Below the pieces are notes generated by a model. It did not search any database. It was not told the DNA's origin and saw only the letters and a list, made by a program, of their open reading frames with translations. From Minisyncoccota bacterium (GTDB lineage: Bacteria > Patescibacteriota > Minisyncoccia > Phycocordibacterales > UBA9973): a DNA stretch of 64,000 bases. Shown in pieces: positions 38,633-55,532 of this stretch. Numbering within the stretch: the first letter of the stretch is position 1; the number at the start of each line of letters is the position of its first letter. The DNA is taken from assembly GCA_028718635.1 (NCBI GenBank), contig JAQULK010000001.1:88626-152625 (forward strand), read 5' to 3'. Both the position numbers and the translations under genes were made by a program.

Positions 38633-38669
38633 ACAACTAGGTAAAAAATTATATAATAAAAACAATAAA

Positions 38670-40712
38670 ATGATAACTAAAAATATGATAGTAAAAAAAT
38701 TTATCTCCGCTCTTTTAATTATTTTAATAGTTACACCGGCTGTTTTATTTTCTAGACCAAAAAAAGCAGATGCTATTGCTTGTGTTCCCGCAGACATTAC
38801 TGCAGTTGTAGGGACTGTAACTAGTGTGCCAGTTAATAGTACTATAGCTAATGCATATCTTGGTGATATTTGCGTATCTACAACCACAATGGCTCCATCA
38901 ACTCTAACTAATACTGCAACTACTGTAAAAGGGTGGTTACAATTAATAGCAGAACAAGCGCTTAGAGCAGTCGAAAGAAAACTCTTAGCACAAATGACTC
39001 AAGCCACCATAAATTGGATAAACTCTGATTTTCATGGACAGCCACTTTTCTTAACAAATCCTGGCTCTTTCTTTAACGACATAGCAAAATCAGAATTAAA
39101 AAATATAGTAAATAGGTACGGCTATGATCTCCGGATGTTTCCTTTTGGCAAACAGTTTGCTTTAAATGCAATAAATAGTTATAAAAGACAACTCGACGAC
39201 AATATGGGATACACTTTGAGCAAAGTGATGAATTCTGCGCAACAAGACAACTTTAGAAATAATTTCAATGTCGGCGGATGGAATGGGTTTTTAATAAATA
39301 CGCAATACCCCCAAAATAATTATTTGGGATTTCAAATGCTTGCAACCGATGAACTCGCTCGCCAACTTCAAGGCACCACCCAAAATGCTGCCCAGAAAGT
39401 ACAAACTGCTCTACAACAAGGCATGGGTTTTCTTTCTCCACAAACTTGTCCGTCTAACCCTAGTTACAACAATGGTGTAAATGAATTCCAAAAACCAAGT
39501 TTTGATTCATCGTCAGTGACATATAATTGCCCTGATGGTTGTGGCGTATCAGGAGCATTCCCGGAAGGAATGGAAATGATATGTAGTTCCTGCAATAGTA
39601 ACTATGAACAAGCCCTTGCCTCAGCCAAAGCAAAATGGGCAAAGACAAATACTTGTCCAGGCGGTTTAGTAAACACTACCCCGGGTTCTGTAGCGGCCAA
39701 TCAAATATTTGAAGCGTTGAATGTTCCAATAAAAGAAAAAACACTCACTGCGGCAATAGGGAAAGATGTAATGGATAGTATGGCTGCTATTATTGACGCT
39801 CTCTTAGGTCATTTTATAGATAAAGGCTTAAGTGCATTATCTGATACCATCAGCGGTACTCCTCCGCAAGATAACTGGAGCTATAATGGGGTCACTTTGG
39901 GAGGTGGAGAAAGTGGAGGAGGTGGCACAGCTGGAACTTTGAATATCCCCCAAAATGTTTCAGTTACTGTCGGACAAACAACCAGTACGACAATATCAGG
40001 CGGCTCAGGAACTTATAACGTTCAACCCCAATCAAGCACATCCTTGGCGATAGCGGTCGCTACGATTGACATTTCTGGTTCTCTTCCAAAACTCACAATA
40101 ACAGCAGGTACTACTCCGGGGACAACAACAATTGTTGTTCAAGATTCATCTAGCCCAGCTAAAACTGTCACTGTCACTATCACGGTAAGCGCTGCCGGAG
40201 CCATAGTGGTTACCCCGGCAAATATTTCGACCACGGTAGGCGGAGGAGGACAAGTCATCGCCACTATCTCTGGCGGAACAGAACCTTACTCTATTCAAAC
40301 AGGCCCCAATGAAACAATTGCGGTGGCTATTCTCTCTGGCACAAATTTAATCGTATCTAGTCTCACAACGAGTGGCACTACTTTTGTAGACATAAAAGAT
40401 TCTTCAAGCCCAGCTAAAACTGTTCGTGTCAATATAATAGTTAGCCCTACTAATTTGACCATCACTCCAGCAAGCATTTCAGTCAAAGTCGGCGAAGTAA
40501 ATAGCAATATGTCTATCTCAGGTGGCACACCACCCTACGTCATCACAAATCAACAAAATGTAACTATAGCAAACGCTGAAATTCTACCCACCACCCCTAC
40601 CACCCTCACCGTCACCGGCCGAGCATTAGGAGAAAGCACAGTAACAGTAACGATCAAAGATTCCTCAAATCCGGCAAAAACCGGCACCGCAAATATCGTA
40701 GTCACCCCGTAG
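38670..40712 (+). CDS. secreted surface protein with C-terminal tandem Ig-like (Big-type) repeats
   Basis: Signal peptide from the internal Met. At least three ~70-aa repeats each ending ...KDSSSPAKTV.V.I.VS. Confidence 0.55.
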   Translation: MITKNMIVKKFISALLIILIVTPAVLFSRPKKADAIACVPADITAVVGTVTSVPVNSTIANAYLGDICVSTTTMAPSTLTNTATTVKGWLQLIAEQALRAVERKLLAQMTQATINWINSDFHGQPLFLTNPGSFFNDIAKSELKNIVNRYGYDLRMFPFGKQFALNAINSYKRQLDDNMGYTLSKVMNSAQQDNFRNNFNVGGWNGFLINTQYPQNNYLGFQMLATDELARQLQGTTQNAAQKVQTALQQGMGFLSPQTCPSNPSYNNGVNEFQKPSFDSSSVTYNCPDGCGVSGAFPEGMEMICSSCNSNYEQALASAKAKWAKTNTCPGGLVNTTPGSVAANQIFEALNVPIKEKTLTAAIGKDVMDSMAAIIDALLGHFIDKGLSALSDTISGTPPQDNWSYNGVTLGGGESGGGGTAGTLNIPQNVSVTVGQTTSTTISGGSGTYNVQPQSSTSLAIAVATIDISGSLPKLTITAGTTPGTTTIVVQDSSSPAKTVTVTITVSAAGAIVVTPANISTTVGGGGQVIATISGGTEPYSIQTGPNETIAVAILSGTNLIVSSLTTSGTTFVDIKDSSSPAKTVRVNIIVSPTNLTITPASISVKVGEVNSNMSISGGTPPYVITNQQNVTIANAEILPTTPTTLTVTGRALGESTVTVTIKDSSNPAKTGTANIVVTP

Positions 40713-40925
40713 GGAATTTTATAAAATTTCTGTGTTACGTTGCAGAATGAATTTTGCGCGACCAGTGTTATAATTAAGAATGTTTATAAAAGGGGGAGCG
40801 GAATGCGTATCGCACTACGAACATTCTGCGGTCTGGGTAACAGCAAAAAAATAGTGTGCGTGAGGACTGACCCATTAAGGACTAAACAGATTTATCTGCT
40901 TCCCCTTTTGCAAACACCAATAATT

Positions 40926-41435
40926 ATGAAAAAAAATTCTACAGCTTACATAGATGCTTCTAATCTGAAGTTTGGAGTTCAGCAAAGCAGTTGGGAGTTG
41001 GATTACAAAGCTTTTAGATCTTGGCTTCGTGATAAATTTGGTGTTTCTAAGGCCATACTTTTTATGGGACTTATTCCTTCAAATTTTGAACTTTACAACT
41101 ATCTTCAAAGTATTGGTTATGATATTGTTTTCAAGCCAACAATTACAAATAAGGATGGCAAGACAAAAGGTAATGTAGATGGAGAATTAATTTTGCGTAT
41201 TGCGAAAGACTTTTATGAAAATGATCTGAATAGTGTTGTGTTAGTGGCTGGCGATGGTGATTATCACTGTATTGTTGAATTTCTGAAGGAAAAAAAAGTT
41301 TCTACCTGTATTGTTTCTCCAAATAAAAAATATTTATCTTTTTTGTTAAAACGCATTAATGTGCCAATTATTATTTTAGATGATTTTATTGAAAAATTAA
41401 AGATTAAAACGAAAAAGCCCCCGAATATGCCGTAA
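40926..41435 (+). CDS. NYN/LabA-like domain protein (second copy)
   Basis: AYIDASNL, LVAGDGDYHCIV. Start at internal Met MKKNS. Upstream 40786..40915 forms a long-range stem. Confidence 0.65.
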   Translation: MKKNSTAYIDASNLKFGVQQSSWELDYKAFRSWLRDKFGVSKAILFMGLIPSNFELYNYLQSIGYDIVFKPTITNKDGKTKGNVDGELILRIAKDFYENDLNSVVLVAGDGDYHCIVEFLKEKKVSTCIVSPNKKYLSFLLKRINVPIIILDDFIEKLKIKTKKPPNMP

Positions 41436-41569: not shown

Positions 41570-43789
41570 ATGCCTAGAAAAATTAAAAAAATAATCCCTT
41601 ACTTTCTCATACTACTTTTTTTTGTAGTTGTGGGAATTTTTAGTCCGATGGTAAAAGTGCATGCATCTGCGGCAGATCCTAACGAGGCTTGTACTAAAAA
41701 TGCAGATGGAAATTTTAATAATCTTCCTTGTAAGACAACGGTAATTAATGACGCAACTAATGAAACGGTAACAACATACTTTGGCGAGGATGGAAAAATA
41801 ATACCTGGTGCTGCTACTGTCACACCTCCAAAACCTGTAGAAAAATCAGAGTTTGAAAACTGGGCAAAAGAAGAATCTTGTGGAATCATAGGTAGCAGTT
41901 CTGTTGCTGGATGCACAAAAGCACTTTTTTATTATATTGTATATACTCCATCTTCTGTTTTTCTTACCATAGCAGCAAAATTCTTTAACGCTTTAATAAA
42001 AATAGCTTTGGACAGTGAAATGATCTCTGGTTCTACTTTTATTTCTACTGCATGGGGAGTCGTCCGTGACCTTTCAAACATCTTCTTCATCCTTATTTTA
42101 CTTTATATAGCTATCAAATTAATTTTAGGACTAGGAGGATCCGAAGTTAAAAAAATGATAGCAAATGTCATAATAATGGCTCTCCTCATAAACTTTTCTA
42201 TGTTTTTTACGAAAGTGATTATTGATACTTCCAACATCTTAGCTTTAATTTTTTACAACAAACTTGATGTTACCTATAAAGATCCAAACACCGGACAGCC
42301 AGCAACTAGACCCGATACCCCAACAACACCTGGAGAAAAAGAAATCTCAGGTGCTATGTATGGTTCTTTTGACGTAACTACAAAATTAAATAATTCAGTT
42401 TTTTGGGAAGATGTTAGAGGAGGAACAGATCATGTCCCTGTAGGAACAATGATTGGCATTATTTGCATTGCCGCTGGCATTATGCTTTTTGCGGCTTATG
42501 CTTTTTTTGTGTCTGGAGTAGCTTTTGTGGCCCGACTAATTGAACTATGGATTTTAATAATCTTTTCTCCTTTCGCTTTTATGTCTTTCACGGTGCCAAA
42601 ACTAGCTGGTACTGATTACATAGGATGGGATGGTTGGTTTAAGCGTTTATTGAAGGTGTCTTTTATGGCACCGATTTTTATGTTCTTTATATATTTAATA
42701 TTTTTATTATTAGAACCCCCAGGATTATTCGGCAATATAACAGCGCAAGCAAAAGCAAGTCAAACATGGGTACAAACTCTTCTGTTTACTCTTATCCCAG
42801 CAATGGTGATTATGGTTCTTCTTCTAAGAGCAACCAAGTATGCCAAAGAAGGCTCGGGAGCAATAGGAGAAATGGTCTTCAAGGGTGCAAAGATTGTGGG
42901 TGGTTTGGCTTTGGGAGGCGCAATAGGTGGAGCAGCGTTTGCTGGCAGAAATGTTATTGGTGGAGGTGGAGGATATCTTGCTAATAAGGCTGCGTCAGGA
43001 ATGAATAAACTTGGAGGTAAATTAGAAAACAAATATGGAAGAAGCTTTGGAATTAACAAGGTTGCTAGCGGACTAACAAGTGTTGGCACACGTGCACAAA
43101 AGGGTAGTTTTGATTTGCGTGGAATCCCTGGAGCAAGTAAAGCTATAGGAATGGCTGGACTAACTGCGGGTGTTGGTATTGGTAGCACCCTTGTTGGTAG
43201 TAGTAAAATAAAGACAGGAGGAATTGCACAGACACGAAAAGAAAAAGTGGAAAAGAGAATGAAGAGGGCGGATATGCTAAAGGTTAGAGAAGATGAAGGA
43301 TTGAAACAGAAATTAAATAAATCAGAAATTGACTTACAAACAATGTTGAATAAGGTTGCAAAAGATTTTGAAAAAATAGATAAAGGATTAGAAGGACAAA
43401 GACAAGCAAAAAATGACGCCGCAAAAGATTCAATAGAAGAAAAGAGTGCAATCGCAAATATCGCAGAACTTAAGGCACAAAAAGCAGCTCTAGTAACAGG
43501 AGCATTGCATACTGGTCAAATGTTAAAACCTGACGGAAGCGTCGAAAAAACCACTAGCGTTGACGGCTCGATCCTAAAGGTATCATCTGGTGACAATGTT
43601 GGAAAAACTATAAAACAACTACAAACTGAAGTAATTCCAGATCAAAAAAATGCGATACTCACAGAAAGCAGAAGGAGAACAACTGCCTTTGCTAACAGAA
43701 AGGGTAGTTGGGGACCATTAAGTAGCACGGCTAATAAAGAGGCAAGATATAAAATAATTATGGAATCAAAAATAGAAAGTAAAGCTTAA
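41570..43789 (+). CDS. polytopic membrane protein, VirB6/TrbL-like candidate
   Basis: 739 aa. Signal sequence. At least six hydrophobic helices centrally. Gly-rich segment. Charged coiled-coil C-terminal tail. First gene of the T4SS-like block. Confidence 0.45.
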   Translation: MPRKIKKIIPYFLILLFFVVVGIFSPMVKVHASAADPNEACTKNADGNFNNLPCKTTVINDATNETVTTYFGEDGKIIPGAATVTPPKPVEKSEFENWAKEESCGIIGSSSVAGCTKALFYYIVYTPSSVFLTIAAKFFNALIKIALDSEMISGSTFISTAWGVVRDLSNIFFILILLYIAIKLILGLGGSEVKKMIANVIIMALLINFSMFFTKVIIDTSNILALIFYNKLDVTYKDPNTGQPATRPDTPTTPGEKEISGAMYGSFDVTTKLNNSVFWEDVRGGTDHVPVGTMIGIICIAAGIMLFAAYAFFVSGVAFVARLIELWILIIFSPFAFMSFTVPKLAGTDYIGWDGWFKRLLKVSFMAPIFMFFIYLIFLLLEPPGLFGNITAQAKASQTWVQTLLFTLIPAMVIMVLLLRATKYAKEGSGAIGEMVFKGAKIVGGLALGGAIGGAAFAGRNVIGGGGGYLANKAASGMNKLGGKLENKYGRSFGINKVASGLTSVGTRAQKGSFDLRGIPGASKAIGMAGLTAGVGIGSTLVGSSKIKTGGIAQTRKEKVEKRMKRADMLKVREDEGLKQKLNKSEIDLQTMLNKVAKDFEKIDKGLEGQRQAKNDAAKDSIEEKSAIANIAELKAQKAALVTGALHTGQMLKPDGSVEKTTSVDGSILKVSSGDNVGKTIKQLQTEVIPDQKNAILTESRRRTTAFANRKGSWGPLSSTANKEARYKIIMESKIESKA

Positions 43790-43803
43790 GTAATTTAGAA
43801 AAA

Positions 43804-44346
43804 ATGACTGAAAAATCAAAAAAATTAATACAAGAGGAAATGTTGAATCTGCCAAAAGAAGCGCAAGATGCCATCAATGCTTCAAATTGGGAAAAACAAT
43901 CTGAAGAAATTGGAAAAAAATACTTACTGAATGAGGATGAAATTTATACTTTTCAACTAGAAACAGCTTGTTTTTTACTTGGTCTTATTGATGAAGATCA
44001 ATACCAAAAAAATATCGAAGATGGCATAGGCACCAGTAAAGCTGAAGCAGAAAAAATATCTGAAGAAGTAATACAGAAAATACTTATTCCTATCAATGAT
44101 CTTTTTGTAAAAAATATTAAAAAAAGCGATAAGGTAAAAAACGCAACGGCTGAGCAAAATCTTAATTTTATTTTATCCGGCGGGGATTATACGGCGTTTT
44201 TGGATGTTCCTCCTCTCGTTGATAAGGAGGGGAATGAGGGGAGGTTCTTAACTAATTCAAATTCACCTCACCCCGACCCTCTCCTTAGTAAGGAGAGGGG
44301 GAATACTGAAGAAACAGTCTTACCAGCCTTTTTTATTAAAAAATAA
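43804..44346 (+). CDS. hypothetical protein (paralogue of the next gene)
   Basis: 180 aa. N-terminus similar to 44364..44957. Carries an in-frame palindromic insertion encoding SNSPHPDPLLSKERGN. Confidence 0.45.
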   Translation: MTEKSKKLIQEEMLNLPKEAQDAINASNWEKQSEEIGKKYLLNEDEIYTFQLETACFLLGLIDEDQYQKNIEDGIGTSKAEAEKISEEVIQKILIPINDLFVKNIKKSDKVKNATAEQNLNFILSGGDYTAFLDVPPLVDKEGNEGRFLTNSNSPHPDPLLSKERGNTEETVLPAFFIKK

Positions 44347-44363
44347 TATATTAGAATAATTTT

Positions 44364-44957
44364 ATGGATAATAATACAGACAACACAACAGATTTATTAC
44401 AAATAAAAATTGACGAGGCAAAAGCGCAATTGCCGGAAGAAACCCGAAACGCGATCAATGCTGTTGACTATAAAGCGGTTATCTTGGAAATGAGAAAAAC
44501 AAAAGGTTACACTTTTGAACAACTGGGAGACTTGGAGACCGAAACAGAATTATTACTTTCTGGACTGACAAGTCCAGAGAATTATTCAAAAGAGCTAGAA
44601 AATAGAATGCATCTCTCAAAAGTTGAGGTCAATGAATTGATAAAAGAAATGAATGACCGCGTTTTTGCAAAAATAAAAGAAAACTTGATAAAAAGCAGTG
44701 AAGGAAAAAATGATATGAAAATATTAAATTCCGCGGGCATTGAAATAATATCCACCCCGTCTAGCAAGCTAGGCACCCCTCAAGAGGGGAATAACACTCC
44801 TCCGATTTTGGCGCAGAAATTATCCGGTTCTTTTCAAGTTCCCGTAGTGAAAACAGAACATTCTTTAGAGAATATTACCAAGACAATTGCGCCCACTCCG
44901 ATAAATGCCATTCCAAGCAAACCAGCCGTAGATCCATACCGAGAGATCCCTGAGTAA
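44364..44957 (+). CDS. hypothetical protein
   Basis: 197 aa. N-terminal region similar to 43804..44346 (LPEETRNAINAVDYK versus LPKEAQDAINASNWEK). Confidence 0.45.
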   Translation: MDNNTDNTTDLLQIKIDEAKAQLPEETRNAINAVDYKAVILEMRKTKGYTFEQLGDLETETELLLSGLTSPENYSKELENRMHLSKVEVNELIKEMNDRVFAKIKENLIKSSEGKNDMKILNSAGIEIISTPSSKLGTPQEGNNTPPILAQKLSGSFQVPVVKTEHSLENITKTIAPTPINAIPSKPAVDPYREIPE

Positions 44958-44978
44958 AAAATTCTTAATGGATATGCA

Positions 44979-45258
44979 ATCCCGTTAGAGATCACTTATG
45001 TTTTATTACACATATATTTTAAAAAGTAAGAAGGACGGTAAAATTTACACTGGATATACGCAAGACCTACGGAAGCGCCTGAATCAGCATAATAAAGGTT
45101 TATCTACATATACGAAAGGACGAGGCCCATTTATTTTGATATACTATGAAGGGTGTCTATTAGAAAGTAAAGCGAAGTCGAGAGAATTATTTTTAAAATC
45201 GGGAATGGGCAAGCGTTATCTAAAAAATAGATTAGGCGCTTCCTATCTCTAACGGGAT
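44979..45258. mobile_element. GIY-YIG gene bounded by perfect 14-bp inverted repeats ATCCCGTTAGAGAT / ATCTCTAACGGGAT (family A archetype)
   Basis: The inverted repeats directly flank the 84-aa GIY-YIG ORF. Termini match the solo family A repeats. Confidence 0.7.
44998..45252 (+). CDS. small GIY-YIG nuclease-family protein
   Basis: YYTYILKSKKDGKIYTGYTQDLRKRLNQHN. Confidence 0.7.
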   Translation: MFYYTYILKSKKDGKIYTGYTQDLRKRLNQHNKGLSTYTKGRGPFILIYYEGCLLESKAKSRELFLKSGMGKRYLKNRLGASYL

Positions 45259-45721
45259 GCAATTCAAAGTTCCACAATTTTTAGACATTGAAGATAAAAT
45301 ATTCGGCCCTTTTACTTTTAGGGAATTTGTTTATTTAGCCGGCGGGGCAGGCTTGTGTTTTATTCTTTATAAATTGCTGGGTCTTATTTTAGGAATAATA
45401 CCCATTTTAGCTGTCGCGGGATTTTCGCTCGCTCTTACTTTTTACAAACCAAATAATAAACCATTTATTAATATAATAGAATCAGGTTTTAAGTATTTTA
45501 CCCAAAATAAACTTTATATTTGGAAGAAAAAAGCAAATAAAACCACCTCTTCCCCCGCCTTCTCCAAAGGAGAAGGAGCCCTCTCCTTCGGGGAGGGTTT
45601 GGGAGGGGTAAACAAAATTCAAATGATGCATCCAGGCAGTTCCCCGTTGAGTGGGAGCAAGTTACGAGACTTGGCTTGGAGTTTAGATGTGCTGGACTTG
45701 AGTAAGCAACAATCCCGTTAG
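45257..45721 (+). CDS. PrgI-family (VirB3-analogue) membrane protein
   Basis: MQFKVPQFLDIEDKIFGPFTFREFVYLAGGAG followed by two TM helices. Lies immediately upstream of VirB4. In-frame palindromic insertion near the C-terminus. Confidence 0.55.
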   Translation: MQFKVPQFLDIEDKIFGPFTFREFVYLAGGAGLCFILYKLLGLILGIIPILAVAGFSLALTFYKPNNKPFINIIESGFKYFTQNKLYIWKKKANKTTSSPAFSKGEGALSFGEGLGGVNKIQMMHPGSSPLSGSKLRDLAWSLDVLDLSKQQSR

Positions 45722-45833
45722 AAGCCGCGGTCGCAGTTTAAAAAATATAAATATGTTAAATAGAAAAATAAAAATTAATAGAATAACAAAGCATAATCAC
45801 GGTCTGTTGACCGCGACCTGCTTCTAACGGGAT
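45711..45833. repeat. family A element (GAAGC subtype)
   Basis: Left inverted repeat contains the TAG stop of the PrgI-like gene. Right inverted repeat ends ...TAACGGGATG, giving the ATG of the next ORF. Inverse-orientation copy at 61725..61805. Confidence 0.75.
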
Positions 45834-46470
45834 GGCCTTAAACGCAAAAGCAACTCAAGAATTTGTCCCGATCAAGGAAGTCCGCGATGGAATCGTTGTA
45901 TTAAAAAACGACGAACTGCGAGCTATTGTCCTAGCCAATTCTGTCAACTTAGCCTTAAAATCTTCCGACGAACAACAGGCAACAATAATGCAATTCCAAA
46001 ATTTTCTTAACACTTTGGATTTTTCTGTGCAAATATCGATTCAATCAAGAAGACTGGACATTAGACCGTATCTTTTGCTTTTGGAAAACAGAATCAAGGT
46101 GCAAAATGAGCCTCTTTTAAAATTACAAACCAAAGAATATATAGACTTCATCAGAAATTTTACTGACTCAGTGGCAATAATGACCAAAAACTTTTTTGTA
46201 GTAGTGCCTTACACTCACACTGCCTTAAAATCAGACTCTGGAATCTTGGATAAAATATTTTCTAGAAAAAATAAAGAAGAAATAAAAGCTGCCAAACAAA
46301 TAGCCTTTGAAGAAAAAAGATCCCAATTGGAAGAAAGAGTGGCGGTCATTCAGCAAGGACTCTCTAGTTGCGGTATAAATTCAGCGCAGCTCGGCACCGA
46401 AGAAGTAGTGGAAGTATTTTATAAGGTTTTCAATCCGGGAGAGATAGAAGGGAAGATTAAAGTAGAATAG
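45832..46470 (+). CDS. VirB4/TraE-type ATPase, N-terminal segment
   Basis: FVPIKEVRDGIVVLKND...NLALKSSDEQQATIMQFQNFLNTLDFSVQISIQ resembles Gram-positive VirB4 N-termini. Confidence 0.5.
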   Translation: MALNAKATQEFVPIKEVRDGIVVLKNDELRAIVLANSVNLALKSSDEQQATIMQFQNFLNTLDFSVQISIQSRRLDIRPYLLLLENRIKVQNEPLLKLQTKEYIDFIRNFTDSVAIMTKNFFVVVPYTHTALKSDSGILDKIFSRKNKEEIKAAKQIAFEEKRSQLEERVAVIQQGLSSCGINSAQLGTEEVVEVFYKVFNPGEIEGKIKVE

Positions 46471-46509
46471 CATCGAGCGCCTTAGGCTCTCTGAGAGCCT
46501 AAGGCGCTA

Positions 46510-48369
46510 ATGCAAAATAAAATGAGTATCTTAGAAAACATTAAAAAATTATTTGGAAAAGAAAAAAGAGACGATAATGAAGAAACACAAGCTTCTGTTT
46601 TGGCCGTCTTGCCGGAAAAGATCTATGAGTCTGCCAATCTTGAACTTCAAGATGTCATAGCGCCGTCAGCCTTAAAAATTGACCCGAAATCCATAAATTT
46701 AGGAAACAAAATCGCCCGTACTTTTTTTATAATATCTTATCCGAGATATTTAACAGATAATTGGTTTTCTCCGATAATCAATTTGGATAAAATTTTTGAT
46801 ATTTCAATATTCATCCACCCCATAGACACTTCTCTCATGTTGCGGCAATTCCAGAAAAAAGTGGCTGAAGTTCAAAGCCAGATAAGCGTCCGAGAAGCAA
46901 AAGGGATGGTACGCGACCCGATGCTGGACACTGCTTATGAAGATTTGGAAGGGCTTCGCAATAATCTGATCCAAGCGCAAGAAAAGATGTTCGATGTGGG
47001 AGTTTACATTACGATTTATGCAGATAATGAATTAGAGCTATTTAAAATTGAAAATGAAATAAAATCAATGCTCGAATCGAAGCTCATATACATCAAGCCG
47101 GCGCTTTTCCAGCAAGAAGAGGGTTTTAAAAGCGTTATTCCAATAGAAACAGACTTATTGAACATCCATCAAAAATTAAACTCTGAGCCTCTTTCTAGTG
47201 TTTTTCCATTTATTTCCTCTGATCTTACTTCCGACAAAGGAATACTTTACGGTATCAACAGAAATAACTCGTCCCTCGTTATTTTCGACCGGTTCAGCTT
47301 AGAGAATTATAACTCCGTGACCTTTGCTAAATCAGGTTCTGGAAAATCTTATGCGGCAAAATTAGAAATTTTAAGATCATTAATGTTTGACACTGATGTC
47401 ATCGTAATAGATCCAGAAAGAGAGTACGAATTTTTAGCTGAAACTGTCGGCGGACGCTATTTTAATATTTCACTTTCCTCAGATCACCATTTAAATCCCT
47501 TTGATTTGCCAATACCTCGTGAAGATGAAACAGTGGAGGATGTATTGCGTTCAAATATTATAAACTTAGTGGGGCTTTTCAGGCTGATGCTAGGCGGACT
47601 CACCCCGGAAGAAGATTCAATGGTGGACCGAGCTATTTCAGAAACTTATGCTATGAAAGACATCACCCCGGAATCAGATTTTTCAAACATCGAACCTCCT
47701 CTTCTTTCAGATTTCGAAATGGTGCTCTCTGGGATGGAAGGAAGCGATTCGGTCATCGCCAGACTGGCAAAATACACCCGAGGCTCTTGGTCAACCTTCT
47801 TAAATAGACCGTCTAATGTAGATATCAACAAAAAATTCGTGGTTTTTTCTGTCCGTGATATGGAAGACGAATTAAAACCGGTAGCCATGTATATCATAAT
47901 GCATTACATTTGGAATGCGATAAGAAAGAATCTTAAAAAAAGACTTCTCGTAGTGGACGAAGCCTGGTGGATGATGAAATCTGAAGATACGGCTTCATTT
48001 CTTTATTCAATCGCAAAAAGAGGCAGAAAATATTATTTAGGTCTTTCCACTATTACCCAAGACGCAGCTGACTTTATGAAATCTCCATATGGCGTACCAA
48101 TAATCACCAACTCTTCCATTCAACTTCTCTTGAAACAATCGCCTACCACTATTGATATTCTGCAAAAAACCTTCAACCTCACTGATGAGGAAAAATATTT
48201 GCTTCTAGAATCCGGACTAGGGGAGGGTATATTTTTCGCAGGATTAAAGCACGTCGCTATAAAAATAGTTTCTTCTTATACTGAGGACCAGATCATTACC
48301 TCTGATCCTTCGCAAATATTATTAAACAAAAAAGCCAGAGAGGAGCAGGAGGCGAAGGATATGGTATAA
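46510..48369 (+). CDS. VirB4/TraE-type type IV secretion ATPase (central and ATPase domains)
   Basis: YPRYLTDNWF...ISIFIHPID. Walker A AKSGSGKSY. Walker B LLVVDEAWWM. Confidence 0.8.
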   Translation: MQNKMSILENIKKLFGKEKRDDNEETQASVLAVLPEKIYESANLELQDVIAPSALKIDPKSINLGNKIARTFFIISYPRYLTDNWFSPIINLDKIFDISIFIHPIDTSLMLRQFQKKVAEVQSQISVREAKGMVRDPMLDTAYEDLEGLRNNLIQAQEKMFDVGVYITIYADNELELFKIENEIKSMLESKLIYIKPALFQQEEGFKSVIPIETDLLNIHQKLNSEPLSSVFPFISSDLTSDKGILYGINRNNSSLVIFDRFSLENYNSVTFAKSGSGKSYAAKLEILRSLMFDTDVIVIDPEREYEFLAETVGGRYFNISLSSDHHLNPFDLPIPREDETVEDVLRSNIINLVGLFRLMLGGLTPEEDSMVDRAISETYAMKDITPESDFSNIEPPLLSDFEMVLSGMEGSDSVIARLAKYTRGSWSTFLNRPSNVDINKKFVVFSVRDMEDELKPVAMYIIMHYIWNAIRKNLKKRLLVVDEAWWMMKSEDTASFLYSIAKRGRKYYLGLSTITQDAADFMKSPYGVPIITNSSIQLLLKQSPTTIDILQKTFNLTDEEKYLLLESGLGEGIFFAGLKHVAIKIVSSYTEDQIITSDPSQILLNKKAREEQEAKDMV

Positions 48370-48376
48370 TAAAACT

Positions 48377-49363
48377 ATGAGACTTAGGTTTTTAACATTA
48401 AATTTTCTTATAACAATCGCGATACTAGGAACTTTTTTACCGCTCGCCGCAAAAGCAGTTTCGTCGGATGATGTTTTAGTTAATGTGTCACCAGAAAATC
48501 CAGCCCCTGGTGAAAACGTAAATATTTCTTTAAAAAGCTATGTTAATAATTTAGACATAGTTTTAATATCTTGGTCAGTAAATGGCAAGAATGTTTCCTC
48601 TGGGATTGGCAAGAAATCTTTTTCTCTTAATGCACCAAGCGCTGGAGGGGAAACAAGCGTCATCGCCACTGCTTCCTTGCCAGATGGCGCAGTAGATACA
48701 AAGGTAATAATAAGACCCTCGGCAATGGTGTTGCTTTCCGAAGCATTGGATTCTTATACACCTCCGTTTTATAAAGGCAAAGCATTACCTTCGCCTGATA
48801 GTTTAGTAAAAGTAGTTGCCTTACCAGAAATAAAATCTGGCTCTAATTTTATAAATCCTAAAAATCTGACTTACGCCTGGCAAAAAGATTACACCAGCAA
48901 CCAAGATGGTTCCGGTTATGGAAAAAATACTTTTACTTATGTAAATGATTATCTTGAAAACTCAAACAACATCGGAGTGACAGCCGGAACCACTGATCAG
49001 AAATTTTCCTCAACAGTAAATATAGACGTAAGAATGAAAGAACCAAAAATTATTTTTTACAAAAATGACGCCAAGCTGGGAACGATTTGGGAACAAGCAC
49101 TCGCTGATGGATATAAAATTCTCGGAAATGAAATCATTGAGGCAGCGCCGTATTTTTTCTCACCTCGCGACATCAGAGTTCCATTAGTCACTTTTGATTG
49201 GTTTATAAATAGCCAAACAATAAATGTGCCTAGTTATAGGAAAAATATACTGCCACTTCAAGCACAAGTGGGAACTTCCGGAACTTCTAAAATAAGATTA
49301 GAAATTAATAATGCCGATAAAATTTTTGAAAGCGCCGTTAAGGAAATCAATGTAAATTTTTAA
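48377..49363 (+). CDS. secreted hypothetical protein of the T4SS-like cluster
   Basis: 328 aa with signal peptide. No recognised motif. Confidence 0.45.
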   Translation: MRLRFLTLNFLITIAILGTFLPLAAKAVSSDDVLVNVSPENPAPGENVNISLKSYVNNLDIVLISWSVNGKNVSSGIGKKSFSLNAPSAGGETSVIATASLPDGAVDTKVIIRPSAMVLLSEALDSYTPPFYKGKALPSPDSLVKVVALPEIKSGSNFINPKNLTYAWQKDYTSNQDGSGYGKNTFTYVNDYLENSNNIGVTAGTTDQKFSSTVNIDVRMKEPKIIFYKNDAKLGTIWEQALADGYKILGNEIIEAAPYFFSPRDIRVPLVTFDWFINSQTINVPSYRKNILPLQAQVGTSGTSKIRLEINNADKIFESAVKEINVNF

Positions 49364-50299
49364 ATGATGAAGAAAGATATATTTAAAAAAATAATAGCCT
49401 TAACATATCTAACATTTTTATTATTTGGATTTCTTACTCCTGCTCGCCATATTTTCGCAGAAGATACTCCCAAAGATGCAACCTATCAACTTTTAGCTCC
49501 GCTTCCTGATCCAGAAGGAGGAAATGATATTGAGATTAATGATCCTACACATCCTGAAGCCCTAAGTGATTATTTAAACGTAATGATAAAGCTCATTATA
49601 GGCATCTGCGCTGTCTTGGCAGTGGTAATGATCGTAATGGGTGGCATTGAATATATGACGAGCGAATTGATTTCAAGTAAAGCAGCGGGTAAAGACAGAA
49701 TTATGCATGCAATTTTTGGTCTTATTTTAGCCCTTGGCGCTTGGACGATTCTCAATACCATAAATCCTAAATTACTCGATAGTAGTTTATCGAGTTTAAA
49801 AAATGTGACAGTGGAGGTAACTGCACAAAATTTTGCACTCTCTCCTTCAACGTATATTGTTCCCCTCGGTGGAAAAGGACAAGCAAGTGGTACAAACTGT
49901 GATGAAAATGCAGTTGCTGCGGCAAACGCCGGTCTTAGTAATGCTCAAATACATACACTCGCTTGCATAGGTGGAATAGAAAGCGGTTGTAAATCAGTCA
50001 AAAACTACGCTTGGGGGAATGGGTCCTCTGCGTATGGACCTTTCCAGATAACATTACAAGGGAATGCTGGATGTTTTACAAGCCAGGTTTGCCGCGACGC
50101 CGGAGCACCGCCTTATCCGCCTGGTTGTGCCGCCGGATTCCAAAATGGTAATCCTAAACCTGGTTCTCCGATTGTGGAACAATGCAAGAACGCTGCTAAT
50201 AATTTTAATTGCAGTGTCTCGGCTGCCGCATGTTTAATAAAAAAGAGACCGAACTATGGCGACTGGAACGCGAACAGCAATCTTTCAAAGTGCCTATAA
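49364..50299 (+). CDS. pilin-like two-helix membrane segment (VirB2-like) fused to a Cys-rich lytic-transglycosylase-like domain
   Basis: Signal sequence. Hydrophobic hairpin IIGICAVLAVVMIVMGG...IFGLILALGAWTILN. C-terminal IESG...AYGPFQI resembles the SLT ES...GLMQ motifs. Confidence 0.4.
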   Translation: MMKKDIFKKIIALTYLTFLLFGFLTPARHIFAEDTPKDATYQLLAPLPDPEGGNDIEINDPTHPEALSDYLNVMIKLIIGICAVLAVVMIVMGGIEYMTSELISSKAAGKDRIMHAIFGLILALGAWTILNTINPKLLDSSLSSLKNVTVEVTAQNFALSPSTYIVPLGGKGQASGTNCDENAVAAANAGLSNAQIHTLACIGGIESGCKSVKNYAWGNGSSAYGPFQITLQGNAGCFTSQVCRDAGAPPYPPGCAAGFQNGNPKPGSPIVEQCKNAANNFNCSVSAAACLIKKRPNYGDWNANSNLSKCL

Positions 50300-50314
50300 T
50301 TTAACCACATTTTT

Positions 50315-51715
50315 ATGTCAAAAAGAAATTTTATACTTTTAATAATAGTTGTAATAATAGGAATAATTGCATTATTCGGATATTTTTATTTCAACCCAGG
50401 AACCAACACGCCAGGGGAGGACAACACGGGCACAAATTTTATTTCACAATTTAACCCATTTGGAAAAAACACCACAAAACCTCCTGCCGACACAACAACC
50501 CCAATTGATATTTCTGGAGATCAACCAAATACCACCTCTGCAGATATAGATGCAAAATTGAAAAAAGTTTCAAGCATGCCAATTGCAGGGTTTACTGTAT
50601 TTTCTAAAGAAAGATTAAAGGATGTGACTGTTCCTCCCCTCCTTTCGGAGGAGGGGGCAGGGGGTGGTGATAACTCTGCACCACCTCGCCCTTCGGGCTC
50701 TCCTCCTTCAAAAGGAGGAGAGAGAACCAAACCAACTCCGCCCCAAACTGAATTTATGCCAGCTTTGAGGTATGTGGAAAGAGCCACAGGAAATATTTAC
50801 CAAACCTTTGCAGACAAAATAGAAGAGAAGCAATTTTCGACAACAATGATACCTCAAGTGTATGAAGCATTTTTTGGAAACAAAGGAAACTCAGTAATCA
50901 TGAGATACTTGAAACCGGATGGCAGAACAATCATAACTTTTGTGGGAACTTTGCCAAAAGAGGTTCTTGGCGCAGATAGCACCGTTGGTAATGAAATAAA
51001 AGGAGTATTTCTTCCAGAAAATACAAAGGATGTGAGTTTGTCAAGCGATTCCAAAAGTCTCTTTTATATGTTTTTAAGTGGAAAAACTCAAGCAGATGGA
51101 GTAACTGGCGCTACTTTTAATTTATTAAATAATAAAAAGATTCAAGTTTTTAATTCTCCTTTCACAGAATGGTTGTCCTCATTCCTAACCAGCAAGATGA
51201 TTACTTTTACCACTAAACCTTCTGCTCAAATTCCGGGATATATGTACGTTATGGATCCGACAAATAAAAATTATAATTTTCATAAAATATTGGGCGGCAT
51301 AAATGGGCTTACCACCCTCATTAGCCCTAATGGAAAACTGGCTCTTTATAGCGATAACAATTTATCTCTTAATATTTTTCACTCGAACACAAAGGTTTCC
51401 GATACGTTGGGAGTAAAAACATTGGCGGAAAAATGTGTTTGGAATAAAACTAGTGAAGTTATTTATTGCGGAGTGCCAAAATCTTATGGAAACGGTCAAT
51501 ACCCGGACAGTTGGTATCAAGGAGAAGTTTCTTTTTCGGATCAAATTTGGAAAATAGATGTTAAAACTGGAAATGCGACTATGATTGCGGATCCAGCCGA
51601 CATAAACGGCGGAGAAGATATTGATAGCACTAAATTAGCGCTGGACGATGGAGAAAACTATTTATTTTTTGTAAACAAAAAGGATTCTTTCCTATGGGAG
51701 TTGAATTTAAAATAA
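50315..51715 (+). CDS. membrane-anchored hypothetical protein (Pro/Thr-rich linker, beta-rich C-terminal domain)
   Basis: 466 aa. N-terminal TM segment. In-frame palindromic insertion encoding PPLLSEEGAGGGD. Confidence 0.45.
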   Translation: MSKRNFILLIIVVIIGIIALFGYFYFNPGTNTPGEDNTGTNFISQFNPFGKNTTKPPADTTTPIDISGDQPNTTSADIDAKLKKVSSMPIAGFTVFSKERLKDVTVPPLLSEEGAGGGDNSAPPRPSGSPPSKGGERTKPTPPQTEFMPALRYVERATGNIYQTFADKIEEKQFSTTMIPQVYEAFFGNKGNSVIMRYLKPDGRTIITFVGTLPKEVLGADSTVGNEIKGVFLPENTKDVSLSSDSKSLFYMFLSGKTQADGVTGATFNLLNNKKIQVFNSPFTEWLSSFLTSKMITFTTKPSAQIPGYMYVMDPTNKNYNFHKILGGINGLTTLISPNGKLALYSDNNLSLNIFHSNTKVSDTLGVKTLAEKCVWNKTSEVIYCGVPKSYGNGQYPDSWYQGEVSFSDQIWKIDVKTGNATMIADPADINGGEDIDSTKLALDDGENYLFFVNKKDSFLWELNLK

Positions 51716-51740: not shown

Positions 51741-51832
51741 TATTTCCTCTCCCCCTTAATAAGGGGGAGACTGTGAGGGGGTTCTTAATTAATTCACCTC
51801 ACCCCAGCCCTCTCCTTATTAAGGAGAGGGGG
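51741..51832. repeat. compound GC-rich palindromic element (family C)
   Basis: CTCCCCCTTAATAAGGGGGAG, TTCACCTCACCCC and CCCTCTCCTTATTAAGGAGAGGG. Same compound as the insertion in 43804..44346. Ends at the jag stop codon. Confidence 0.7.
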
Positions 51833-52357
51833 CTAAATTCCACCCACGTATTTGATCACCACTCGGCGATCGCGCCCGAAACCTATGGATTCGGTTTTAA
51901 GGTCATTTGATTCAGATAAAAATTCATGAACGATTCTGCGTTCGAAGGCTGACATTGGGTCAACTTCTATATTAGACTTAAAATATCTCGCTCTTTCAGA
52001 CATCATATGGGCTATTGCACGGATATTCTCAACATGTTTTTTTTGAAAACCGTTTATATCTATAATAACAGACCCTCCCCCAACCCCTCCCTTGGCAGGG
52101 AGGGGGGTCCCTTCTCCCCCTGCTAAGGGGGAGTGCCCGAAGGGCGGGGGGGTCTTAGCTTCTATTATTCTATGAACAAGGTGGCTTAACGCGTGCAAAC
52201 CCTCACCATCACGCCCAATAAAGAAATGTGGCTCGACAACCTCTATGGAAACCCATACATTTTTATGCCCATCATCAACTATTGAAATTCCATTTAGTTT
52301 TACTGTAGTTTTTTCAATTAAGTCTTTTATTAAATTTTGAATCTCTTCTTTTTCCAT
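51833..52357 (-). CDS. jag: Jag/KhpB (KH + R3H) RNA-binding protein
   Basis: R3H motif ERRIVHEFL. In-frame double-palindrome insertion encoding PPPFGHSPLAGGEGTPLPAKGGVGGGS. Confidence 0.8.
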   Translation of the reverse strand: MEKEEIQNLIKDLIEKTTVKLNGISIVDDGHKNVWVSIEVVEPHFFIGRDGEGLHALSHLVHRIIEAKTPPPFGHSPLAGGEGTPLPAKGGVGGGSVIIDINGFQKKHVENIRAIAHMMSERARYFKSNIEVDPMSAFERRIVHEFLSESNDLKTESIGFGRDRRVVIKYVGGI

Positions 52358-52477
52358 CCCGTTAGAAGCAGATCGCGATCAACTCGCGTATCTGCCATAT
52401 TAAGTTATTAATTTTATTAATATTTGATTTCATGTTTTGTTTGTTTTTAAATTGCGATCGCGGCTTCTAACGGGATC
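52356..52477. repeat. family A element (GAAGC subtype)
   Basis: Fills the yidC-jag spacer. One end supplies the jag ATG (CTAACGGGATG on the minus strand). The other ends 5 nt before the yidC stop. Confidence 0.75.
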
Positions 52478-53250: not shown

Positions 53251-53544
53251 TTACTTCACAGAATCAATGTGATTTTTTTGCCAAGGATGGCAACGCAGAA
53301 TGCGTTTCAACCCTAAATAAATTCCTTTCCATGCGCCATATTTTTCTATCGCTTGTTTGGTGTATTCAGAACAAGATGGATAAAAAACACAAGTGTTCGC
53401 TTTCAAAAAAATTGAAATGTTTTTTTGATAAAAATTAATCCCGTTAGAAGCCGCCCTCGCTAGTAAGCGAGTGCTACAGTCACCCTGGGGCGACTTGCTT
53501 CTAACGGGATTAATTAAGTTTTGAAAGAATTGTTTTAATTTCAT
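53251..53544 (-). CDS. yidD: membrane protein insertion efficiency factor YidD with in-frame family A repeat
   Basis: C.FYPSCSEY...RILRCHPW signature. N-terminal residues [24 protein letters not shown] are encoded by repeat 53438..53512. Confidence 0.7.
53438..53512. repeat. family A element inside the yidD 5' region
   Basis: CCCGTTAGAAGCCGCCCTCGC...GCGACTTGCTTCTAACGGGAT. Right end abuts the rnpA stop codon. Confidence 0.75.
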
Positions 53545-53860
53545 TTTCTATAGCAGAGATATCGTCCCTCGGCTGTAGCCCTACGGGCGAAGCTTGATAT
53601 TTTTTAAAAACAAAGACTCCCATGATTCCGAGAGGGAACTGGTCTATGTATTTAGATAAAGCTGTATAGCCTCGACGTCGCAGTAAATTTCTCTTAACAG
53701 CGAGTTTGGCTACACTTTTTGGCGCAATAAAGGAAATTTTTACTTCTTTATTGGGGTTTTGGGTGTATTTAAAAGTAAAACTGGGAGAAATAAGAAATCT
53801 TCCTTCTTTAAAGATTTTATCGACTTCTTTAGTGCTTACTCTATTCTTTTTAGGTAGCAT
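53510..53860 (-). CDS. rnpA: ribonuclease P protein component
   Basis: 116 aa, basic. Sits between rpmH and yid[12 protein letters not shown]. Confidence 0.8.
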
Positions 53861-53871
53861 ATAAAACCAAC

Positions 53872-54006
53872 TTAAACACTGAGTTTTTTTCTGCCCTTTT
53901 GACGTCTTCTTTTTAAGACCTTCTTTCCTGTTTTTATTCTAGATCTAACCAAGAACCCGTGAGCTCTGGCTCTTTTTCTTTTTTTAGGTTGGTATGTAAC
54001 TGACAT
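53872..54006 (-). CDS. rpmH: 50S ribosomal protein L34
   Basis: Not in the ORF track. Hand-translated as [44 protein letters not shown]. Confidence 0.85.
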
Positions 54007-54117
54007 TACTAGAGTCTATAATAAAAATTATAAAAATACAACCCCCTAATCCCCCTTATCAAGGGGACTTACAAAATTTTTCCTCCCTTGACAAGGGGAG
54101 GTCAGGAGGGGTTGAGT

Positions 54118-54137
54118 TTTATCCACAGTTTATCAAC
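54118..54137. promoter_or_regulatory. two tandem DnaA boxes (TTATCCACA then TTATCAACA)
   Basis: Perfect consensus 9-mer plus a 1-mismatch copy 2 bp downstream. Sits between rpmH and dnaA beside a GC-rich compound palindrome at 54035..54112. Confidence 0.6.
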
Positions 54138-54194
54138 AGAGTTAATAAGCTTTCAAAGATGTCTTCTATTTTAGAAATAGTATAATATGGAACT

Positions 54195-55532
54195 ATGAAC
54201 ACAAATCAATTGTGGAAAAGCTGTTTGCTAAAAATTGAGTCTGATATGTCTAAGGCAAATTTTAGCACTTGGTTTAAAAATACCTCTATTGCAAAAGAAG
54301 AAAACGGGATTGTTTATATAGGAGTGCCAAATGAATTTGTTCGTGATTGGCTTATAAATAAATATCATAAGCTTATAACCAAAACCATAGCTGAAAATTA
54401 TGAAAATATGCGCGCGGTGGAATATGTAATTACAAAAATAGAAAATTCTAAACAAGAAACAATAACAAGCGAAACTATAGAAAAAGAACTACCTTTGAGA
54501 GATTTATATATTAATCCGGAGAATAATCTAAATCCTCGCTACCATTTCAACTCTTTCATCGTGGGAACTTTCAATGAACTCGCCTATGCGGCAGCTCAGG
54601 CAATCATAGAGTCTCCGGGGACTAAATATAATCCATTTTTTATTTACGGCGGTACTGGTCTCGGAAAAACTCACTTAATTCAAGCTGTAGGAAATTCAGT
54701 AAAAGACAAATATCCCCATAAGAAAGTGCATTATATGACTCTGGAAAAATTCGCGACAGATTTTATAAACTCCCTTCAGAGTAATAAGGCAAATTCTTTC
54801 AAAGAAAAATACCGCAAATATGATCTTTTGATCATAGATGATATTCAATTTATCGGTAAAATGGAAAAAATTCAAGAAGAACTTTTCCACACATTTAATA
54901 CTTTTTATGAAAACAATAAGCAAATTATTTTTTCCTCTGATAAGCACCCTAATTACATTCCAGAACTAGCAGATCGTTTAAAATCACGTTTTGCTGCAGG
55001 AATGATAGTAGATGTCACTGAGCCGGAATACGAGTCTCGCCTTGCGATTATAAAAGTAAGGCTTCGTGAATTTAATATAGTCTTAGATGAAGATGTAATT
55101 GAATATGTCGCGTCATCTATCCAAGGGAATATCCGTGAACTTGAAGGGATCCTGAATCTTATTATTTGCCAATATCGCCTTAAAAATAAGGCTCCGGCAC
55201 TGCCTGAAGTCAAAAATTTGTTGAAAAATAGTATGAAACCAAAAAAGAATATAGCAATAAAAGATGTCGTAAAAATTGTGGCTGAGTATTATAAACTAGA
55301 AGAAATGTCTATATATGAAAAAACTAGAAAAAAAGAAATCGTAAAAACTAGACAAGTTATAATGTATCTGCTTCGAGAAGATTTCAGTGTCTCTTATCCA
55401 CTCATAGGGCAAAAATTAGGTGGAAAAGATCATACTACAGTGATGCATTCGTGTGTAAAAATAAAAGAAGATTTAAAAAATGATCCGCAATTAATACAAG
55501 AATTGGAACAAATAAGAATTTTGTTTAAATAA
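54195..55532 (+). CDS. dnaA: chromosomal replication initiator protein DnaA
   Basis: GGTGLGKTHL, LLIIDDIQF and C-terminal DNA-binding domain. TATAAT at 54181..54186 lies only about 8 nt before the ATG, possibly a leaderless transcript. Confidence 0.9.
   Translation: MNTNQLWKSCLLKIESDMSKANFSTWFKNTSIAKEENGIVYIGVPNEFVRDWLINKYHKLITKTIAENYENMRAVEYVITKIENSKQETITSETIEKELPLRDLYINPENNLNPRYHFNSFIVGTFNELAYAAAQAIIESPGTKYNPFFIYGGTGLGKTHLIQAVGNSVKDKYPHKKVHYMTLEKFATDFINSLQSNKANSFKEKYRKYDLLIIDDIQFIGKMEKIQEELFHTFNTFYENNKQIIFSSDKHPNYIPELADRLKSRFAAGMIVDVTEPEYESRLAIIKVRLREFNIVLDEDVIEYVASSIQGNIRELEGILNLIICQYRLKNKAPALPEVKNLLKNSMKPKKNIAIKDVVKIVAEYYKLEEMSIYEKTRKKEIVKTRQVIMYLLREDFSVSYPLIGQKLGGKDHTTVMHSCVKIKEDLKNDPQLIQELEQIRILFK

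Follow-up and report, generated by a model that had tools for sequence, protein, structure and literature searches.

We analyzed a 64,000-nt stretch of a Minisyncoccota bacterium (GenBank assembly GCA_028718635.1, contig JAQULK010000001.1, positions 88,626 to 152,625 of the forward strand; hereafter the window), in which 10 co-directional open reading frames (ORFs) form a type IV secretion system (T4SS) cluster whose VirB2-like protein carries a cell wall enzyme (Table 1). A preliminary description, made from the letters of the sequence, had proposed a secretion-like cluster at this place with adhesin-like proteins upstream, and all ORFs were found on the plus strand where it had put them. Its VirB4 ATPase, PrgI-like VirB3 analogue, polytopic membrane protein, two paralogous small proteins, secreted protein and membrane-anchored protein were all recovered in our searches, whereas its list of components had omitted the TrsD-like gene, which corresponds to the N-terminal domain of VirB4. 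The genes are spaced as in an operon: the intergenic gaps within the cluster measure 0-40 nt, except for one of 110 nt (45721/45832) with a palindromic element inside, and the GC content (0.37-0.40) is the same as that of the flanks.

Table 1. Coordinates of the T4SS genes, inserted genes and palindromic elements in the window (aa, amino acids; TM, transmembrane; MITE, miniature inverted-repeat transposable element)
Feature	Coordinates	Strand	Remarks
T4SS cluster	41570-51715	+	10 co-directional ORFs
Upstream membrane-anchored protein g321, 321 aa	37667..38632	+	TM-like segment aa 24-42; DTDGDGIPDWQE TSP3-like motif
Upstream surface protein g699, 699 aa	38613..40712	+	N-terminal anchor (TM-like aa 29-47), Cys-containing domain, C-terminal repeats
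NYN-domain gene	40740..41435	+	PF01936 E=4e-14; in 2/54 related loci, between genes
VirB6-like polytopic membrane protein, 739 aa, 'extended VirB6' architecture	41570..43789	+	long hydrophilic C-terminal extension
Small cytoplasmic protein, paralogue 1, 180 aa	43804..44346	+	no TM segment
Small cytoplasmic protein, paralogue 2, 197 aa	44364..44957	+	no TM segment; in 36/54 loci
Free-standing GIY-YIG nuclease gene, 84 aa	44998..45252	+	PF01541 E=9e-18
PrgI/VirB3-like small membrane protein	45257..45721	+	PF12666
Palindromic MITE-like element	45711..45835	.	arms TCCCGTTAGAAGC...GCTTCTAACGGGA; repeat families D1, I16/I20; fills prgI-trsD gap
TrsD-like protein (VirB4 N-terminal domain as separate gene)	45832..46470	+	
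VirB4 ATPase, central and C-terminal P-loop part	46510..48369	+	
Conserved secreted or anchored protein g328, 328 aa	48377..49363	+	N-terminal hydrophobic segment
VirB2-like pilin module and 11-Cys lysozyme-like domain	49364..50299	+	module aa 1-138, C-domain aa ~178-311
Conserved membrane-anchored extracytoplasmic protein g466, 466 aa	50315..51715	+	TM segment aa 6-24
Palindromic copies, group 1	36449-36510, 44259-44320, 51790-51851, 27296-27336		
Palindromic copies, group 2	34231-34261, 45577-45607, 50633-50663		
Palindromic copies, group 3	26534-26619, 34808-34893		
Further TCCCGTTAGAAGC...GCTTCTAACGGGA-family sites	5330-5389, 13957-14012, 14446-14501, 52355-52378, 52454-52476		at gene boundaries
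Further TCCCGTTAGAAGC...GCTTCTAACGGGA-family sites	53437-53460, 61722-61748, 61765-61804, 62843-62898		at gene boundaries

The putative VirB6-fold protein, PrgI/VirB3 and the two-piece VirB4 are standard parts of a cytoplasmic-membrane translocon. The ATPase exceeded the cut-off of the NCBIfam model NF045971 (CD1110 family; 364 against 325 bits) and matched PF19044 (E=8e-25), the C-terminal domain of VirB4 in the Protein Data Bank (PDB) entry 4ag5 (E=4e-41) and TrwK (E=2e-7), with the Walker A (FAKSGSGKSY) and Walker B (LLVVDEAWW) motifs readable directly in the sequence. PrgI matched PF12666 with 33.3 bits against a cut-off of 27, as well as TcpE (E=0.0016), and displayed one strong hydrophobic peak at aa 40-58. 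The preliminary description had agreed to give way if no profile match to VirB4 or PrgI were obtained or if the ATPase proved FtsK-like; both profiles were matched, and the ATPase was of the VirB4 kind. The TrsD-like protein matched positions 102-234 of the VirB4_plasma model (NF045975, E=7e-11), positions 2-167 of the CD1110 VirB4 model and, under the curated cut-off, TrsD (NF041427, E=2e-6), while its family profile retrieved nothing significant from the PDB. Because this protein and the ATPase align with aa 21-200 (BLASTP, E=5e-6) and aa 203-754 (E=2e-82), respectively, of an unsplit clostridial VirB4, VirB4 is encoded here in two pieces, an N-terminal TrsD-like domain and the ATPase. A hydropathy scan of the VirB6-like protein revealed 8 hydrophobic segments followed by the long hydrophilic tail. 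Neither this protein nor 52 orthologues matched VirB6/TrbL in Pfam or NCBIfam, nor did the family profile against PDB sequences, and it was the fold search alone that indicated a likeness to VirB6. Components of an outer-membrane core (VirB7, VirB9 and VirB10) gave no Pfam or NCBIfam match in the cluster, as the monoderm MPF_FATA type requires.

The gene downstream of g328 encodes a pilin module joined to a putative wall enzyme. The module consists of a signal peptide and a two-helix hairpin, with matches to PF18895 (E=7e-9, aa 71-133), TrbC (E=1e-3) and the Mbov_0395 pilin-like family (E=6e-5). In an AlphaFold2 model, helices at 66-99 and 103-133 precede a linker (140-177) with a predicted local distance difference test score (pLDDT) below 50 and a C-terminal domain with a pLDDT of 73-91 (10-residue blocks, aa 181-300). 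Both termini of the VirB2-like protein lie outside the membrane, and a flexible linker of about 40 residues joins it to its lysozyme-like domain; the protein exceeds the VirB2/TrbC norm (about 70-120 aa mature) by the roughly 170 aa of linker and enzyme that follow the hairpin. No other ORF of the window has a pilin module, and exactly one such gene is present per locus in 68 of 73 loci. The other five (L013, L065, L071, L072 and L080) have two pilin-module genes near virB4, both long and fused.

The pilin-like hairpin of the preliminary description was thus retained, whereas its SLT-like Cys-rich domain held at the superfamily level and not at that of the family, since Pfam SLT gave no match. 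With the profile of the C-domain family, C-type lysozymes of human and mouse were retrieved (E=1.8e-5), and the match spans the catalytic motif E-S...YGxFQI. Membership of the lysozyme-like superfamily was judged by a catalytic Glu in an E-S motif and a G-x-x-Q-[IV] motif about 17 residues on, and within the family E206, G225, Q228 and I229 vary little or not at all; on these sequence features, the domain can be assigned to that superfamily (C-type lysozyme/SLT). Where C-type lysozymes have their second catalytic Asp (Asp52/53), the domain has Ala, as do lytic transglycosylases.

The remaining proteins could not be named as readily. The two small paralogues are related to each other (BLASTP E=1e-8, 26% identity over 96 aa) and matched no family in Pfam or NCBIfam. 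N-terminal hydrophobic segments in both g328 and g466 agree with their description as secreted and membrane-anchored, respectively; g328 had no Pfam, NCBIfam or PDB-profile match, and g466 was assigned to no family, with a weak TolB profile match (E=0.022) as a hint that it is possibly a beta-propeller. Upstream, g321 and g699 are conserved in 36/54 and 41/54 loci, respectively, whereas the peptidoglycan-binding gene at 36664-37641, which had been grouped with them, was rejected as a member of the system because it lies on the opposite strand and is kept in only 5/54 loci. The calcium motif once attributed to g321 amounts to a TSP3_bac match below threshold (E=0.049), and g321 is a probable accessory extracytoplasmic component. 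In g699, the C-terminal repeats proved real, with three copies of about 85 aa (direct-repeat family D5 at 40141, 40396 and 40657), but their Ig-like label was not supported, as no significant Pfam or PDB match was obtained; the divergent copies were visible only as repeat family D5 and were not detected by Tandem Repeats Finder.

To place the locus among its relatives, gene order was compared across 81 species-level Paceibacteria loci (80 from a one-genome-per-species scan and one retrieved by exact protein look-up). The shared order runs (uvrD-ksgA)-g321-g699-VirB6-like-(two small genes)-prgI-trsD-virB4-g328-pilin fusion-g466, continues with jag-yidC-yidD-rnpA-rpmH on the opposite strand and then reaches dnaA-dnaN; it was colinear in 54/58 loci. 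Among the 54 loci with at least 9 kb of upstream sequence, the VirB6-like gene, prgI and trsD were always present. Where 8 kb or more of downstream sequence was available (56 loci), g328, the pilin gene and g466 were found without exception, and dnaA in 54 loci. In L055, L013 and L070, the genes g328, pilin and g466 stand in a different order. VirB4 is 75-96% identical across the 81 species, trsD was found in 81/81 loci at 50-95% identity, and the best 120 of 8,000 VirB4 matches were at least 89% identical, with sources named Paceibacterota, Pacebacteria, Nomurabacteria, Minisyncoccia or Patescibacteria. With 75-96% identity across species, VirB4 is conserved like a core gene rather than like a mobile element. 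The distance from the VirB4 stop to the dnaA start is 5,826 bp in the window against a median of 5,830 bp across the species-level loci; dnaA and dnaN were identified in the window together with a perfect DnaA box, which confirmed a position adjoining the replication origin (oriC). A fixed chromosomal site by jag-yidC-rnpA-dnaA in 81 species indicates vertical inheritance.

The enzyme at the C-terminus of the pilin is exchanged among close relatives. In the relative L001, whose VirB4 is 96% identical, the pilin module is 59% identical over aa 7-152, whereas the C-domain is unrelated and belongs to NlpC/P60. Pfam annotation of 70 positional orthologues of the pilin identified T4SS_pilin in 59, NlpC/P60 in 12, VanY in 8, YkuD in 5, Peptidase_M15_4 in 3, SLT_2 in 2, and SLT, Amidase_2, 3D and Extensin-like_C in 1 each. 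All-against-all BLAST of the regions following the conserved TINPxLL motif in 69 orthologues yielded 23 clusters, and the sharing of a cluster was barely tied to relatedness: 2 of 6 pairs shared one at VirB4 identities of 95% or more, compared with 11% of pairs at 90-95%, 10% at 85-90% and 7% at 70-80%. Because the C-terminal domains belong to different folds, this pattern reflects domain replacement and not divergence. Two independent samples repeated this pattern. In one, comprising the best 120 database matches, 42 proteins combine PF18895 with NlpC/P60, VanY, SLT_2, YkuD or M15_4. The other sample consisted of the 128 nearest 50%-identity representatives, drawn from 14,187 pilin-module matches (E<=1e-3) in 1.84 billion proteins; 98 of the 128 have a C-terminal tail of at least 80 aa, and the Pfam domains found were VanY (18), NlpC/P60 (12), M15_4 (7), SLT_2 (7), YkuD (3), Extensin-like_C (3), SLT (2) and SLT_3 (2).

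The T4SS cluster itself is already known. Quinonero-Coronel et al. (2025; PMC12102498) described the system across 3,035 Patescibacteria genomes: VirB4 forms a sister clade of MPF_FATA, the genes for TrsD, PrgI/VirB3, VirB6 and VirB2-like pilins lie near it, and relaxases are almost absent; the Paceibacteria version adjoins dnaA, dnaN, rnpA, rpmH and ksgA. In that study, 'fusion' refers only to VirB3-VirB4 and 'NlpC' is absent, and the published accounts of the system treat VirB1 and VirB2 separately. No mention of a fusion between pilin and hydrolase was found in the searchable literature (PF18895, PF18896, VirB2 with peptidoglycan hydrolase). In Pfam, PF18895 (T4SS_pilin) and PF18896 (SLT_3, 'lysozyme like domain') have consecutive accessions, which suggests that one architecture of this kind may have been noticed by its curators, and our claim of novelty is therefore confined to the polymorphism of the pilin-borne wall enzyme, which appears to be undescribed. 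The same study inferred a pilus that needs no VirB1, since most VirB2-bearing genomes lack VirB1 (PMC12102498); a VirB2-like protein that itself carries the wall enzyme explains this apparent lack. Enzyme exchange at 90-97% VirB4 identity also offers a testable handle on which wall is cut, whether a pilus displays the enzyme and whether the enzyme tracks the host.

We searched with Pfam the cluster, its flanking ORFs and 30 further ORFs of at least 169 aa in the 64-kb window, and among ORFs of that length no relaxase, VirD4/TraG, TcpA/FtsK-like coupling protein or VirB11/T2SSE match was found, as the preliminary description had read from the sequence. Its view that the cluster is not a conjugative element also gained ground from the fixed oriC-proximal site among the 81 relatives and the lack of DNA-processing genes in the window. 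Our data support a monoderm-type (MPF_FATA-like) T4SS of a candidate phyla radiation (CPR) bacterium, not a conjugative element, and very probably the locus represents the vertically inherited oriC-proximal T4SS of Paceibacteria, a minimized MPF_FATA derivative no longer tied to DNA processing. Several points weigh against this interpretation. Our negative result covers the 64-kb window, and the remainder of the genome, about 672 kb in all, could still hold a gene for a coupling protein; in Patescibacteria, VirD4 homologues are often found at a distance from virB4 (PMC12102498). A VirB8-like component was not found, the profiles of g328 and g466 against the PDB giving no VirB8-like match; four conserved proteins have no assignable family; the fold searches did not confirm a lysozyme-like fold for the C-domain, their matches being dominated by the helical hairpin; and the function is inferred.

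Within this framework, VirB4 with TrsD would dock on PrgI/VirB3 and the VirB6-like channel and power assembly and transport. The tethered pilin-borne hydrolase may cut peptidoglycan locally, which would let the apparatus or a short pilus cross the wall of the cell itself or of an attached organism, and g328, g466 and the proteins encoded at 37667-40712 could form an extracytoplasmic, wall-spanning part or a contact surface. By analogy with Saccharibacteria, the system would most likely serve a host-dependent (epibiotic) lifestyle and not conjugation. The T4SS of Southlakia is essential for epibiotic growth and is accompanied by no recognizable coupling or relaxase proteins (Wang et al., 2023; PMC10633639), although the role of the T4SS in Saccharibacteria has been called 'completely unknown' (PNAS 2024; PMC11665869). 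Reviews mention effector delivery or the import of nutrients or nucleic acids (PMC11665869, PMC12857230).

Rather than a housekeeping equivalent of VirB1, the pilin-borne enzyme could be a host-directed polymorphic effector, a reading that competes only with the view that it acts on the cell's own wall and to which we give a little less than even weight. The T4SS would then display or release the enzyme so as to breach a host or prey wall, and its class would follow the wall chemistry of that host. Non-homologous peptidoglycan-active folds are swapped among positional orthologues, replacement is fast even where VirB4 is at least 90% identical, and the pattern repeats in the 128-representative sample and among the best 120 homologue matches. 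The enzyme classes are those of antibacterial type VI secretion system (T6SS) and X-T4SS effectors. Such rapid non-homologous replacement favors exposure to an external, variable target. However, no variable immunity-like gene is adjacent, the downstream g466 being conserved in 56/56 loci, and membrane-anchored SLT/NlpC-P60 enzymes are normal self-wall parts at the same position in monoderm T4SSs; the missing immunity gene and this precedent argue for a housekeeping reading. Moreover, any wall-cutting activity might suffice, in which case the turnover could be neutral. More speculatively, and in our judgment rather unlikely, the sole VirB2-like subunit of Paceibacteria would be a recombination-shuffled carrier of peptidoglycan-cleaving enzymes (among them muramidase, amidase, carboxypeptidase and L,D-transpeptidase-fold types) shown at the tip or surface of the apparatus, where they would open the host wall and their class would help to set the host range. 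If true, the fusion would be a 'pilin-borne polymorphic effector', a way of presenting effectors that is not known from any T4SS, and the published view of a Patescibacteria pilus independent of VirB1 would have to change.

It is also quite conceivable, if somewhat short of probable, that the VirB2-like module is a mere two-helix membrane anchor for the hydrolase and that no pilus exists in this clade. The single pilin-module gene per locus, with none elsewhere in the window, and the long tails of most of the nearest representatives would fit such an anchor. Yet the module has clear homology to PF18895/TrbC, and since both termini of known VirB2 pili face outward, a C-terminal fusion is sterically conceivable in a pilus. 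Monoderm T4SSs are normally without pili (PMC12857230), whereas Saccharibacteria require their arrays of unfused pilins (PMC10633639) and tubular structures at the Minisyncoccota-host interface, possibly T4SS pili, were reported in a 2026 preprint (bioRxiv 10.64898/2026.06.21.733656).

A DNA-uptake (competence) system like Helicobacter ComB, which the lack of a nearby relaxase or coupling protein would allow and which earlier authors have suggested as a way to obtain nucleotides (PMC11665869), seems improbable. ComB needs VirB7-10 homologues, and this candidate was rejected because none were found in the cluster with Pfam or NCBIfam. The literature likewise argues against an essential DNA-uptake role for the Saccharibacteria T4SS: DNA uptake in Southlakia depends on comEC and type IV pili (T4P), and comEC is dispensable, whereas the T4SS is essential (PMC10633639, PMC12857230). 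A degraded or integrated conjugative element was rejected as highly improbable, for although the closest plasmid and non-CPR relatives of VirB4 lie on conjugative plasmids of Firmicutes and Actinobacteria (CD1110 family, 31-35% identity) and the core gene order is the same as on one of these plasmids, such a remnant fits poorly with a fixed oriC-adjoining site and a 75-96% identical VirB4 in 81 species, with a GC content equal to that of the flanks and with a window in which no integrase, relaxase or coupling protein was found.

The preliminary description held that several components were interrupted by GIY-YIG or palindromic elements; the insertions were verified but leave every component intact, the GIY-YIG gene being intergenic and the palindromes lying in frame in linkers. 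The GIY-YIG gene, present in 3/54 related loci at varying positions, is a selfish insertion between genes, and the NYN-domain gene is a sporadic insertion outside the machine; a second NYN-domain gene (predicted RNase) lies at 17737-18246 (-). Short, GC-rich palindromes belonging to at least three families occur throughout the window (e.g., ACCTCACCCCxACCCTCTCCTTxxxAAGGAGAGGG), and alignment of orthologues showed in-frame inserts in the C-terminus of small paralogue 1 (44259-44320), PrgI (45577-45607) and g466 (50633-50663). Such inserts lengthen linkers by 10-25 residues (for instance 'SPHPNPLLIKERE' or 'GEGALSFGEG'), orthologues elsewhere hold different ones at the same spots, and ksgA, uvrD and the gene for the CCA-adding enzyme contain further in-frame copies; in these respects they resemble the Rickettsia palindromic elements. 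The MITE-like element between prgI and trsD provides the prgI stop codon (TAG) in one arm and the trsD start codon (ATG at 45832) in the other, whereas the two genes are 1 nt apart in L001. Arms of the same family supply the ATG start of jag (52357) and ruvC (61724), and the element appears to insert between adjacent genes while keeping stop and start codons.

The probable oriC region lies at 53860-54195, between rpmH/rnpA (-) and dnaA (+). Here the DnaA box TTATCCACA at 54120 is followed by TTATCAACA, and a GC-rich palindrome (CCCCCTTATCAAGGGG / CCCTTGACAAGGGGAGG) lies nearby at about 54045-54100, with GC content dropping to 0.30 just downstream. A scan of the window for promoters and terminators gave no excess over shuffled sequence and was uninformative, and Rfam identified only four tRNAs in the window, all distant from the cluster. 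Other window ORFs with a family assignment are all housekeeping or small mobile genes. The regions 158-2759 and 15430-17598 encode orotidine monophosphate (OMP) decarboxylase, a phosphoribosyltransferase, dihydroorotate dehydrogenase and polynucleotide phosphorylase (PNPase), which are of interest because Minisyncoccota were recently proposed to feed on host RNA via PNPase and T4SS (bioRxiv 10.64898/2026.06.21.733656). The stretch of lowest GC content (0.276) is occupied by a restriction-modification pair, consisting of a restriction endonuclease of TdeIII type (7957-8802, -) with an N6/N4 DNA methylase (8753-10327, -), and is probably a horizontally acquired island. Two paralogues in divergent orientation (18809-20557, - and 22743-24422, +; E=2e-144, 41% identity over 580 aa) code for Cys-rich proteins that have CxxC repeats and no Pfam match, and they are the source of inverted repeats I1 and I2; between them lie an ORF6N/Rha-like gene, an Exo_endo_phos nuclease and a TMEM175-like channel. 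Just upstream of uvrD/pcrA, an ORF at 31338-33713 (+) encodes a protein of 791 aa that had no Pfam match and contains long low-complexity stretches, either acidic or rich in Pro/Thr.

Polymorphic toxin and X-T4SS effectors join a conserved N-terminal delivery module to a rapidly exchanged C-terminal enzymatic domain, with Tae, Tge, Tlde1 and X-Tfe as wall-targeting classes. The pilin fusion shares the conserved N-terminal module and the swapped enzyme with them, but it differs in that no adjacent variable immunity gene and no XVIPCD/VirD4 signal accompany it and in that the carrier is a structural pilin-like subunit. Like the VirB1-type hydrolases TraG of pIP501, PrgK of pCF10, TcpG of pCW3 and CD419, which bear SLT, CHAP, NlpC/P60 and similar domains, the fusion protein is membrane-anchored and encoded downstream of virB4; unlike them, it has a VirB2-like hairpin as anchor and a single catalytic domain, which is exchanged among at least 8 Pfam families. 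Compared with MPF_FATA systems of the CTn2/CD1110 type, the window shares the order PrgI-VirB4-wall hydrolase (VirB4 31% identical, E=2e-82). The Clostridium perfringens plasmid NZ_CP143494.1, arranged as MobC-relaxase-DUF3801-VirD4-x-(weak TrbL_2)-PrgI-VirB4-hydrolase, has a small VirB6/TrbL_2-like protein upstream of PrgI, an unsplit 783-aa VirB4 and an 850-aa SLT and NlpC/P60 hydrolase without a pilin-module match, whereas in the window the DNA-processing genes are missing, VirB4 is split and the VirB6-like protein is much larger. The PrgI, TrsD and VirB4 of the window are also colinear with positions 37-105, 102-234 and 263-892 of the Mbov_0397 model (NF045975) from the T4SS of a Mycoplasma integrative and conjugative element (ICE), in which the three pieces form one VirB3-VirB4 fusion protein; matches to the Mbov_0395 pilin-like family and these models (NF045849, NF045975) fell below the family cut-offs, that of the pilin being weak, and the Mycoplasma system, unlike ours, is an ICE with DNA-transfer functions. 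Among the Patescibacteria T4SSs, Saccharibacteria (Southlakia epibionticum SEML1_0006-0019; PMC10633639) have arrays of 2-11 unfused pilins and separate peptidase or lysozyme genes, whereas the window has one pilin-module gene, fused to its enzyme, within exactly the organization published for Paceibacteria (PMC12102498).

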